This document shows positions 48,238 to 50,112 of a stretch of 64,000 bases of DNA, in pieces. Origin of the DNA: Escherichia coli (GTDB lineage: Bacteria > Pseudomonadota > Gammaproteobacteria > Enterobacterales > Enterobacteriaceae); NCBI RefSeq assembly GCF_011045215.1, contig NZ_CP049201.1. The stretch is one strand, 5' to 3'. Position 1 is the first letter of the stretch, and every line of letters starts with the position of its first letter. The notes beneath the pieces were generated by a model. The model ran no database searches and had not been told where the DNA came from. It saw nothing but the letters and a program-made list of their open reading frames with translations. Position numbers and translations under genes: made by a program.

Positions 48238-49482
48238 ATGGCGTTACCTGCGGAAAGCCTGATTGCGTATACCCTGGAAAAAATGAAGCACCGTATGACC
48301 ACCGGAGCCCGGAAGGAGGAGGGGCGAATACGCAGCGGACTGTTGTTCACCGGCAATGTGCACGATGCCATTCCGCGTCGTCTGTTGCTGGATACGCGTC
48401 TTTCACCGCTGGACAAGATGGCATGGATGATGATCCGGCTGTATGCGCAGAATAATGAGGGGGCCATTTTTCCTACTTACGATGAACTGCAACTGCAGCT
48501 GGCATCGCCGGGAAAGGGAAAAGCTTCCAGAGAAACCGTCAGCCGGGTATTGCTGATGTTGCGGATCACGGGCTGGCTGAGCCTGTGTAAACGGGTACGT
48601 GATGATAAAGGCCGGGTTCGGGGAAACATTTACGCCCAGCATGACGAGCCCCTGACGTTCTGCGATGCAGAGGCGATGGATCCGCGTTATCTGGATATAG
48701 TGGCAGAAGCCTGTATGAGCCGGAACCGGACCATCAGTCAGACGGCACGGGATATTCTTTGTGAAATAAAAAATGATCCGGGAATGCGTCACTATCACAG
48801 CCATATCAGTCAGCTGGAAGCCCGGATAGGAAGTGCCCAGACACCGGGGCAGATGGCTGCCCGTCAGCGGGTGACAGAGGACAGAATGCGGCCGGGTTCG
48901 GAAACCGAACCAGTGGTGAGAACACTGAGTTCGGCACCGGAAAAGCTGAGTTCGGAAACCGAACCGGGTAAAAAAATGGGGCAAAAAAGACAGAGTTCGG
49001 ATCCCGAACCATCAGGAAAATCAGCAGGTTATCACAGAGTCCGGGAACCGAACCATTACGTACGTAATATCACACACAGTGTGATTAAAAACACGTACGT
49101 ACTGCCGGCGTCGCTGACGGGGCAAATCAGGGAGGAAGATGCCATCATGCTGACTAGTCAGTTGCAGGCGTTGCCGGAAGCGCTGGCACAGGGGGTGCTG
49201 GAAAGCCTGTCAGGGATGCTGGGCAGTCAGTCACTGCAGAACCCGGTGGGCTGGCTGCTTGCAGTGCTGAAGCGTGCCCGGGAGGGAAATTTTTATCCAC
49301 CGAAACAGAAACAGCGCGTCGCTGCATCAGCCACCATACAGGCGGGAGCGGGAGGGCGCACCACTTCGCAGCCTGTTGTCACCCGGAAACGTACAGAACC
49401 CATTTCAGCAGAACGTCTGAGTGGCATTGTGGCAGGACTACGGGCCTCCCTTCGCAACCGTCCTGCGATGAGAGCCCGGTGA
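48238..49482 (+). CDS. Winged-helix Rep-like protein (STY4528-family 'pathogenicity island replication protein' type)
   Basis: SD GAGGTG before the ATG at 48238. It has a wHTH-like segment SRETVSRVLLMLRITGWLS. Its position upstream of the tandem array is the same as in SPI-7-like islands. The family name is from memory. Confidence 0.65.
   Translation: MALPAESLIAYTLEKMKHRMTTGARKEEGRIRSGLLFTGNVHDAIPRRLLLDTRLSPLDKMAWMMIRLYAQNNEGAIFPTYDELQLQLASPGKGKASRETVSRVLLMLRITGWLSLCKRVRDDKGRVRGNIYAQHDEPLTFCDAEAMDPRYLDIVAEACMSRNRTISQTARDILCEIKNDPGMRHYHSHISQLEARIGSAQTPGQMAARQRVTEDRMRPGSETEPVVRTLSSAPEKLSSETEPGKKMGQKRQSSDPEPSGKSAGYHRVREPNHYVRNITHSVIKNTYVLPASLTGQIREEDAIMLTSQLQALPEALAQGVLESLSGMLGSQSLQNPVGWLLAVLKRAREGNFYPPKQKQRVAASATIQAGAGGRTTSQPVVTRKRTEPISAERLSGIVAGLRASLRNRPAMRAR
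48895..49053. repeat. Cluster of GTTCGG-N3-CCGAAC palindromes inside the Rep-like gene
   Basis: GGTTCGGAAACCGAACC 48895-48911; half-site GTTCGG 48929-48934; GTTCGGAAACCGAAC 48950-48964; GTTCGGATCCCGAAC 48995-49009; GTCCGGGAACCGAAC 49039-49053. Confidence 0.8.
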
Positions 49483-49506: not shown

Positions 49507-50112
49507 AGAGCAAAAATCAACCAGTGCTGCCAGTGGCAGCATAGAGCAAAAATTAGCCAGTGCTGCTCGGGGCAGCATAGAGCAAAAATTAGCCAGTGCT
49601 GCCCGGGGCAGCATAGAGCAAAAATCAGCCAGTGCTGCCCGGGGCAGCATAGAGCAAAAATCAGCCAGTGCTGCCCGGAGCAGCATAGAGCAAAAATTAG
49701 CCAGTGCTGCCCGGGGCAGCATAGAGCAAAAATTAAGCAGTGCTGCCCGGGGCAGCATAGAGCAAAAATTAGCCAGTGCTGCCCGGGGCAGCATAGAGCA
49801 AAAATCAGCCAGTGCTGCCCGGGGCAGCATAGAGCAAAAATTAAGCAGTGCTGCCCGGGGCAGCATAGAGCAAAAATTAGCCAGTGCTGCCCGGGGCAGC
49901 ATAGAGCAAAAATCAGCCAGTGCTGCCCGGGGCAGCATAGAGCAAAAATCAGCCAGTACTGCCCGGAGCAGCATAGAGGAAAAATTAGTCAGTGCTGCCC
50001 GGGGCAGCATAGAGCAAAAATTAGGCAGTGCAGCCCGGGACAGCATAGAGTGAAAATTAGCCAGTGCTGCCAGTGTCACCAAAGAACAAAAATTATGCTG
50101 CGTCAGCAGCAT
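49507..50112. repeat. Tandem array of a 36-bp unit (about 15 well-conserved and 2 degenerate copies), each with an internal palindrome; candidate iteron/oriV or centromere-like array
   Basis: The unit is AGAGCAAAAAT(T/C)AGCCAGTGCTGCCCGGGGCAGCAT, starting at 49507 and then every 36 bp through 50047, with a shortened copy at 50083. TGCTGCCC-G-GGGCAGCA forms 8-bp inverted arms. The array lies 25 nt after the Rep-like stop codon. Confidence 0.95.

Follow-up and report, generated by a model that had tools for sequence, protein, structure and literature searches.

Intragenic GTTCGG-N3-CCGAAC dyads in STY4528-family rep genes of integrative conjugative elements: a DNA-level signal and candidate replication origin

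What does a cluster of near-perfect palindromes do in the middle of a protein-coding gene? This question is raised by a stretch of 64,000 nucleotides from Escherichia coli (contig NZ_CP049201.1; the whole stretch is called the window below), in which the rep gene at 48238..49482 (+ strand) contains several copies of the dyad GTTCGG-N3-CCGAAC. The gene encodes a protein of 414 amino acids from the STY4528 family (NCBIfam NF040582, "pathogenicity island replication protein", E 5e-121) and its neighbourhood is, judged from gene content, an integrative conjugative element (ICE) of the SPI-7/PAPI-1/pKLC102/ICEclc type. ICEs of this kind, ICEHin1056 included, disseminate genes for virulence, resistance and catabolism among Proteobacteria. 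A first-pass annotation of the window took the dyads for a protein-binding cluster hidden in the gene and named as possible roles an autoregulatory operator, a parS-like centromere and an auxiliary origin element. Here, we show that the dyads are a DNA-level signal and that the encoded linker peptide (SETEP or VRKPN) is a by-product. It appears probable, moreover, that they are iteron-like sites for dimers of the gene's own Rep and constitute, with an adjacent A/T-rich module, the core of a vegetative origin inside rep.

Selection on the DNA and not on the peptide

Perfect 15-bp dyad cores start at 48896, 48950 and 48995. The first belongs to dyad 1 (48895..48911, GGTTCGGAAACCGAACC), a perfect 7-N3-7 palindrome G-GTTCGG-AAA-CCGAAC-C that is read in frame 1 as G-S-E-T-E-P. 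Dyad 2 (48950..48964, GTTCGGAAACCGAAC; GTTCGG-AAA-CCGAAC) and dyad 3 (48995..49009, GTTCGGATCCCGAAC; GTTCGG-ATC-CCGAAC) are perfect as well and encode S-S-E-T-E-P and S-S-D-P-E-P in the same frame. Dyad 4 (49039..49053, GTCCGGGAACCGAAC; GTCCGG-GAA-CCGAAC) has one mismatch and lies in frame 0, where it gives V-R-E-P-N; in an 85%-identical E. coli orthologue it is perfect (GTTCGGAAACCGAAC). Like the module and the array described below, the dyads are listed without a strand. Their coordinates and sequences, as well as the centre-to-centre spacings of 54, 45 and 44 bp, had been given correctly in the first-pass annotation, and a half-site reported at 48929 turned out to be real. It is part of a decayed dyad (GTTCGGCACCGGAAA, 48929..48943) with two mismatches, located 33 bp past dyad 1 and 21 bp ahead of dyad 2, and in two orthologues a recognisable site with this 33+21 spacing occupies the position. 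With up to one mismatch allowed the pattern occurs four times in the 64 kb, always at 48896-49053, and is thus confined to the cluster in the rep gene; dinucleotide shuffles predict 0.11 matches, and four were obtained in 0 of 100 shuffles.

The intragenic location is a property of the whole family. A census of the window and 83 related loci (84 sequences with flanks of up to 8 kb per side) places all 251 sites inside the rep gene, 209 of them in frame 1 and 42 in frame 0, and no dyads were found in the flanks of these loci. When the codons of 76 distinct orthologous genes were shuffled synonymously, 9.4 sites with at most one mismatch were expected and 224 were observed, which is a 24-fold excess; for perfect sites the corresponding numbers are 0.96 and 129 (approximately 130-fold). 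Distant lineages show the same excess of dyads. The same result is reached with 37 representatives of less than 85% amino-acid identity aligned by codon, in which we measured how often the same codon is used given the same amino acid: codon identity is 0.71-0.88 over codons 217-288 (48886-49101, approximately 215 bp) compared with 0.30-0.50 elsewhere in the gene, and amino-acid identity across these codons is merely 0.16-0.5. Hence the dyads are preserved at synonymous positions better than the flanking codons, and orthologues retain the dyad symmetry itself.

The stretch of frozen codons coincides with a linker that is disordered in a structural model calculated with AlphaFold 2 (AF2), where the predicted local distance difference test (pLDDT) is approximately 33 at residues 215-286. 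In the family the peptide at sites 1-3 follows the pattern x-S-[ED]-x-E-[PL] and at site 4 the pattern V-R-x-P-N. Residues encoded at the spacer N3 vary freely (E, D, V, N, K, L, G or A), and the residue after the second arm can be L, P or F with codons that all keep the last C or T of the arm. Divergent E. coli orthologues align with the window only from dyad 3 on (megablast), and the E. coli variants P0060 (396 amino acids) and P0103 (388 amino acids) are shorter by precisely one or more dyad units of 54 bp. Because whole dyad units are lost in these variants, the linker peptide must be dispensable and the number of sites variable within the species.

A low-complexity linker is prone to slippage and the copy number differs between strains, so that a repeat arising by chance or driven by the peptide, without function at the DNA level, had to be considered. 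It is refuted by both shuffle controls (dinucleotides and synonymous codons), by the use of two reading frames in the STY4528 family and three across families, by a peptide that varies exactly at N3 and by conservation across alpha-, beta- and gammaproteobacteria; we regard it as practically excluded. The earlier statement that the peptide does not require dyad symmetry therefore holds, as follows from the two frames and the synonymous shuffle, and the central idea of a protein-binding cluster hidden in the gene gains strong support from DNA-level selection and family-wide conservation. Here a DNA signal clearly determines which peptide a coding region specifies, an example that bears on gene annotation, on how "low-complexity linkers" are read and on the synonymous recoding of mobile elements.

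The consensus derived from 225 sites is C-Y-G-R-GTTCGG-WWW-CCGAAC-T-C-A-G. In the half-site T2 and C4 are invariant, the arms are kept as sequence and the spacer is 93% A/T. A gene contains between one and six sites, most often four, and the spacings are nearly always 33, 42, 44, 45 or 54 bp, i.e. within 2 bp of multiples of 11 bp, which suggests rough helical phasing. In 78 of 80 genome loci the dyads occur at gene offsets of approximately 650-820 nt (658, 712, 757 and 801 nt in the window), and some 90 orthologues, with amino-acid identities as low as 26-31%, show the same placement; the distant ones were recovered by tblastn against plasmid records. Thus in pKLC102, where the protein is 31% identical in amino acids, four perfect GTTCGG-N3-CCGAAC sites are found at offsets 675, 719, 773 and 817, and similar dyads are present in P. 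veronii, pY89, Stutzerimonas and one Pantoea plasmid. Two CTTCGG-N3-CCGAAG sites each were found in an ICEclc-like element of Ralstonia and in Tistrella, an alphaproteobacterium; ICEHin1056 and three metagenomic relatives contain three to four GTTCC-AAAAK-GGAAC (GTTCC-N5-GGAAC) sites in the same two-frame layout. In Trabulsiella guamensis and Erwinia psidii all four dyads per gene (offsets approximately 640-810) have switched jointly to GAGTCCGG-AAA-(A/T)CGGACTC with compensatory changes on both arms. A likeness to the T-arm sequence of tRNA (matches to a yeast tRNA probe) was judged to be coincidental.

Sequences of this symmetry could also act by shape, as hairpins of single-stranded DNA (ssDNA) or as cruciforms and not through a dimer that reads the duplex, for instance in priming of the complementary strand after conjugative entry or as the strand-displacement origin once suggested for pKLC102. 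The full palindromes reach 12-N3-12 (e.g., pKLC102 site 1), the outer arms show compensatory variants (CTGAG/CTCAG versus CAGAG/CTCTG and CTTAG/CTAAG) and the region folds strongly as ssDNA (z = -5.9). Nevertheless, the inner arms are kept as sequence, with T2 and C4 invariant and no free covariation, mismatched sites persist, and all sites of one element change jointly as expected if they follow a single protein. No RNA family was matched either; a search of Rfam returned only a chance miRNA match inside the 36-bp array (E 0.58). A test for G-U bias as a trace of mRNA structure gave no signal in either direction, the non-Watson-Crick pairs being mostly A.C and G.T as produced by single transitions. 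We therefore consider recognition by shape distinctly improbable.

The conserved element is longer than first noted and extends to approximately 49102. The last dyad lies in the other reading frame and within about 10 bp of it (window 49039-49102) begins a module of GTAC boxes and A/T-rich sequence (49056..49102) that represents a candidate unwinding region. It comprises TTACGTACGTAA (49056-67), the inverted repeat TCACAC-ACA-GTGTGA (49070-84), the A-tract TTAAAAAC (49085-92) and ACGTACGTAC (49093-102). Its nucleotides are 100% identical in E. coli orthologues whose proteins share 64% amino-acid identity, and synonymous-codon identity is 0.82-0.88 against a background of approximately 0.4. The encoded peptide (HYVRNITHSVIKNTYV in the window) is conserved yet left disordered by the model. 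The GC content drops to 0.45-0.50 in the region of the module compared with 0.56-0.64 in the flanks, and a short A-tract is present. An equivalent module, with GTAC box, A/T-rich inverted repeat, A-tract and second GTAC box, is located behind the last dyad in Pseudomonas, Stutzerimonas, Ralstonia, Tistrella, Haemophilus and Pantoea (e.g., L084 7765-7820, L088 5670-5715 and L085 5475-5530). The module of 43 out of 77 enterobacterial relatives includes a DnaA-box-like 9-mer (TGTGAATAA), which is absent from the Pseudomonas types. By analogy with known origins the module is likely to be the melting site. An internal promoter was dropped as an explanation, since a promoter scan gave no sigma-70-like site inside the element.

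The gene's own product as candidate reader

No Pfam domain was matched by the Rep protein of the window, and a literature search for STY4528, a family of roughly 1,300 members, returned only annotation mentions. Its AF2 model, the second of two and based on 40 sequences (the first, from 14 sequences with a pLDDT of 51, was discarded), predicts a winged helix at the N-terminus and a helical domain at the C-terminus joined by a disordered linker, with pLDDT values of 80-93 for residues 45-200 and approximately 77 for residues 290-350. The predicted N-terminal structure has a DnaD-like winged-helix fold. Its putative recognition helix (codons 97-111, SRETVSRVLLMLRIT; 48526..48570, + strand), assigned from the secondary structure of the model, starts with S97-R98-E99-T100. 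The highest-probability Foldseek matches are the RepA-DNA complex 5KBJ and the RepA N-terminal domain 4PQL. The fold thus appears closest to RepA_N/DnaD initiators, at Foldseek E-values that are not significant. In an alignment of 40 family members the only Pfam matches were sub-threshold ones (HTH_36, DnaD_N and RP-C_C). A comparison of the family profile by sequence with solved structures returned noise (TALE repeats, E at least 0.5).

A hint at the reader comes from natural variants of the half-site. Elements of the ICEHin1056 type combine the half-site GTTCC with the helix SRKLVSQT, Ralstonia and Tistrella combine CTTCG with SHETVARA, and Trabulsiella and Erwinia (L075, L077) combine GTCCG with SRDTVSRV; all other loci have GTTCG together with SRET[VI]... 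(SRESV in a single Stutzerimonas locus). As reference we used 38 alignment columns that are invariant in 79 distinct proteins of the GTTCG type. Among these only R98H is changed in the CTTCG lineage, apart from the dyad-encoded N272. The GTCCG lineage has changed E99D and L309 plus two dyad-encoded residues, and the GTTCC lineage E99K plus six others. Changes in the half-site consequently track R98 and E99, the first residues of the predicted recognition helix, and in the model both fall where a winged helix usually reads bases. These two positions and the three natural half-site variants make a clean specificity swap possible.

The dyad is not restricted to this family. When metagenomes were scanned for pairs of perfect dyads separated by 25-45 bp, at least 120 loci were obtained, and a viral scan yielded 5. 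Among the matches listed, a STY4528-like gene covers the dyads in 105 of 125 loci, and at least 12 of the other 20 have them inside a different gene that encodes an N-terminal helix-turn-helix, with arrays spaced by 21-23 bp or roughly 45 bp. These hosts include bona fide RepA_N+DUF6017 genes (PF06970, E 4e-27), HTH_36 genes and a metagenomic gene weakly similar to Phage_rep_O (E 7.6e-6). An example is a Lachnospiraceae metagenome contig (L222, 3433-3585), where seven GAAGTTCGG-AAA-CCGAACTTC dyads with a period of 23 bp occupy the RepA_N linker. They pass through each of the three frames in turn (VRKPN, FxNQT, SSETEL), and an A/T-rich stretch comes after them; the gene order of this element is parA-parB-repA-...-traG. 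This distribution suggests an iteron common to several initiator families. RepA_N+DUF6017 genes with the dyad were seen also in L187, L166 and L179; the database contains more than 8,000 RepA_N+DUF6017 proteins, the lengths of which vary as though the repeat number varied. Phage-like viral contigs (L218 9644-9703, L220 12545-12605, L217 and L221) contain dyad arrays spaced by 22-23 bp in small genes for N-terminal winged-helix proteins, one of them weakly Phage_rep_O-like.

The assignment of the dyads to the gene's own Rep is carried by computational observations, namely DNA-level selection, family-wide conservation, covariation of half-site and helix and the occurrence of the same dyad in RepA_N genes. 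Under the mechanism that we propose the N-terminal winged helix would bind each GTTCGG-WWW-CCGAAC as a dimer, with the bases being read by the helix that starts at S97-R98-E99-T100. Since the dyads, two to six in number, are 33, 44/45 or 54 bp apart, i.e. about three, four or five helical turns of 11 bp, the dimers would be found roughly on one face of the DNA, which would allow a higher-order complex. The neighbouring A/T-rich inverted repeat would then melt and the C-terminal domain would recruit components of the replisome, the DnaB helicase encoded 4 kb upstream on the island being a candidate client. As a probable side effect, a Rep complex on the dyads may also throttle the expression of rep as a roadblock because its mRNA must be transcribed through the occupied sites.

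Other proteins could in principle read the dyads, namely PFL_4669/InrR (AcaB-like), DUF2857/BisC or a conserved host protein, and the named ICE proteins accompany the dyads in all lineages examined. However, the chromatin immunoprecipitation (ChIP) peaks of BisC in ICEclc are located at promoters with a different 15-nt motif, and its occupancy at orf96323, the gene that contains the corresponding dyads, is low (PMC12409273). In addition, the dyads are found in RepA_N and other winged-helix initiator genes of elements that do not encode these proteins, and changes in the half-site track the Rep helix. Such a factor is hardly a probable reader.

Downstream array, ParB-like protein and rival roles of the dyads

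In the window and its relatives the rep gene is located downstream of the genes for a ParB-like and a DUF2857 protein and upstream of PFL_4669. The island encodes a DnaB-type replicative helicase (42596..44128, + strand; Pfam DnaB/DnaB_C) and a ParB-like protein (44125..45804, + strand) that matches the profile TIGR03764 and is a homologue of BisD (PMC12409273). A gene for a DUF2786/DUF7168 protein separates the latter from the DUF2857 gene (46519-47097). Downstream of rep a 36-bp unit is repeated 16 times (49507..50095); then follow a MipA gene, the gene for the PFL_4669/AcaB-like protein (from 51266) and topoisomerase III (from 51975). In the short gap 5' of the rep start a G+C-rich 11-N5-11 hairpin (CAGCCCCCTGCATCCAGCAGGGGGCTG, 48150-48176) was observed, which may be a terminator or attenuator between an Ead-like open reading frame (ORF) and rep. 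A contig labelled Vagococcus sp. WN89Y, and thus assigned to a Gram-positive genus, has a rep gene 97% identical to the enterobacterial gene of the window, which points to assembly contamination or very recent transfer.

The array holds 15 palindromes TGCTGCCC-G-GGGCAGCA (8-N1-8) at positions 49525+36n. Palindromes of this arm-N1-arm type follow the rep stop codon in nearly every locus, with lineage-specific arms in which a change on one side is compensated on the other. The palindrome is TGGTGCCA-N-TGGCACCA in an E. coli relative and in the 57-bp repeats of pKLC102, TGTTGGCA-G-TGCCAACA in another E. coli lineage and (C)TATCCCC-A-GGGGATA(G), the core of the proven bisS, in Ralstonia and Tistrella. 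In ICEclc the ParB-like CTP clamp BisD loads at GAGCTATCCCCnGGGGATAGCTC in inrR and ssb, i.e. at long arm-N1-arm palindromes (PMC12409273). By position and architecture the palindromes of the array are probably equivalents of bisS and the array a loading site for the ParB-like (BisD-type) protein. The first-pass annotation had brought the array into connection with an origin; being the positional equivalent of the BisD sites, it is more likely to serve the ParB-like protein. The arrays annotated as oriV in pKLC102-type elements may likewise be loading sites of ParB-like clamps. No long bisS-like palindromes were found inside the PFL_4669 gene of the window. A palindrome GGCTATCC-C-GGATAGCC at 47777-47793, in an Ead/Ea22-like ORF, resembles the ICEclc bisS half-site; as a bisS site it was rejected, being absent from all related loci and probably a chance occurrence.

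Could the ParB-like protein of the island use the dyads themselves as a parS-like centromere, as had been proposed, or as a site for clamp loading? They form a palindromic cluster close to a parB-like gene, their spacing resembles that of F sopC with its period of 43 bp, and the true bisS sites of ICEclc are intragenic as well. The homologous site of ICEclc argues against it. There, CTTCGGAtTCCGAAG in orf96323, a gene that corresponds to the STY4528 position according to the gene order of the Ralstonia locus, was listed as candidate bisS-3 and produced no BisD foci (Antar et al. 2025, PMC12409273). Enrichment of BisD in ChIP peaks at bisS-1 and bisS-2 and is lower at orf96323 (PMC12409273). 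Moreover, proven bisS sites have long arms, a single central base and lineage-specific sequences, and the dyads, with 6-N3-6 up to 12-N3-12 and almost invariant arms, do not have this architecture; what corresponds to bisS in the window are the 15 palindromes of the array. Across lineages whose bisS-type palindromes differ the dyads stay invariant, so that different readers are required for the two kinds of site, and we judge the centromere very unlikely.

More serious is the possibility that the dyads are only an operator or roadblock for Rep, or pair copies for copy-number control, and that replication starts at the array or by rolling circle from oriT. The covariation of helix and half-site supports Rep as the binder here as much as in the case of an origin. 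Furthermore, since the sites lie inside the transcribed rep gene a bound protein must meet RNA polymerase. The replication of ICEclc needs TraI and oriT1, and in published work the "oriV" of both pKLC102 and ICEHin1056 is assigned to repeat arrays. On the other hand, an operator has no need of a nucleotide-conserved A/T-rich inverted-repeat module, which always follows the dyads and has its parallel in the A/T-rich tract after the dyads of RepA_N genes, and the origin of pSK41 consists of Rep boxes built in the same way. In addition, Rep is unlikely to read the array because the palindromes of the latter vary by lineage and the Rep recognition helix does not. As an exclusive role the operator is rather unlikely; as a second role or rival of the origin function autoregulation is possible.

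Several points weigh against the origin core as we propose it. Binding by Rep, melting, recruitment of the helicase and autoregulation are postulated by analogy with known initiators. The model has a mean pLDDT of just 64, Foldseek gave no match at E ≤ 0.001, and RepA_N (PF06970) was matched neither by the protein of the window nor by any of 40 family members (E ≤ 10). Profile-profile alignment (hhalign) against RepA_N pairs only the dyad-encoded linker with 9.6% probability, and for this reason membership in RepA_N by sequence is not claimed. The covariation comprises three lineage events, with phylogeny as a confounder. Classical iterons are spaced by approximately 22 bp, less than the 44-54 bp seen here, and the DnaA-box-like copy of the window (TGTGATTAA) has two mismatches. 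Replication of excised ICEclc, the only member of the family studied in depth, depends on the TraI relaxase and oriT1 (PMC6561031). Finally, plasmid records that carry the gene are ICEs or hold another rep gene and do not show autonomy; they were rejected as proof of autonomous replication, since the records of pKLC102 and ICEHin1056 describe ICEs and the Pantoea plasmid has a separate initiator gene.

Known counterparts of an origin inside its initiator gene

The palindrome sequence was known before, in PFGI-1 (2009) and ICEclc (2025), both mentions being incidental. In PFGI-1 of P. fluorescens Pf-5 the first half of a "putative oriV" upstream of PFL_4669 consists of four CTGAGTTCGGAATCCGAACTCAGT repeats and the second half of four 46-bp repeats with another inverted repeat; the origin was called from sequence alone and the island is stated to be without a Rep protein (Mavrodi et al. 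2009, PMC2647930). This oriV and ICEclc bisS-3 are the same element as the dyads of the window. In contrast with the present description the PFGI-1 palindromes were not placed in coding sequence (PMC2647930), and in ICEclc only binding of BisD was tested, with negative outcome (PMC12409273). New are the family-wide conservation, the overlap with coding sequence and the link to the gene's own product. The dyads are now set apart from the neighbouring ParB-type array and assigned to that product, in an ICE family whose "oriV" annotations rest on sequence inspection alone. The earlier label of an auxiliary origin element came closest to the best-supported reading with regard to the origin; the dyads look like the initiator-binding core, however, and not like an accessory.

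An origin embedded in the coding sequence of its initiator is known from repABC plasmids, where oriV is found inside repC (PMC3155836). A dyad cluster of the present type is not mentioned in the abstract concerned. Seven of 40 STY4528 members match the C-terminal region of RepC (RP-C_C) below threshold, with a best E-value of 0.038.

The plan of an origin nested in the linker-coding part of the initiator gene is shared with O and ori-lambda of phage lambda, which were reportedly described by Tsurimoto and Matsubara in 1981 and by Zahn and Blattner in 1985. There, four dyad-symmetric iterons and an adjacent A/T-rich region are located inside the O gene in the part that encodes a flexible linker. 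The O protein has a DNA-binding N-terminal and a helicase-recruiting C-terminal domain, and its dimers form a higher-order complex. The systems differ in iteron sequence, spacing and protein family (Phage_rep_O).

Close counterparts are the RepA_N initiators of Firmicutes. The N-terminal domain of pSK41 Rep binds four Rep boxes that are located centrally in rep, and the central linker encoded there is dispensable (PMC5703833); RepA_N iterons in general are inverted repeats that converge on an A tract (PMC7145576). Their design of a DnaD-like winged helix at the N-terminus, a linker that is dispensable and a lineage-specific C-terminal domain (PMC5703833, PMC7145576) has its counterpart in the (partly predicted) architecture of the STY4528 proteins, and in both cases semi-palindromic, A/T-centred repeats occupy the linker-coding middle of rep, which in RepA_N is the origin. 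Lachnospiraceae RepA_N genes even carry the identical dyad GTTCGG-AAA-CCGAAC. Differences are the missing Pfam RepA_N match, with no significant profile similarity beyond the dyad-encoded linker, the spacing of the dyads (33-54 bp in STY4528 genes versus 23 bp) and the hosts, here ICEs of Proteobacteria in which DnaB, a ParB-like activator clamp and topoisomerase III are encoded as well. We tentatively suggest, as an idea that may well prove wrong, that STY4528 proteins and Firmicutes RepA_N represent one ancient initiator lineage that has kept an intragenic origin and a GTTCGG-WWW-CCGAAC iteron read by an R-E motif. If this were true, the ICEclc/PAPI-1/SPI-7/ICEHin1056 family would have a theta-type oriV inside rep, and the "oriV" arrays of pKLC102, PFGI-1 and ICEHin1056 would be multi-copy loading sites of ParB-like CTP clamps.

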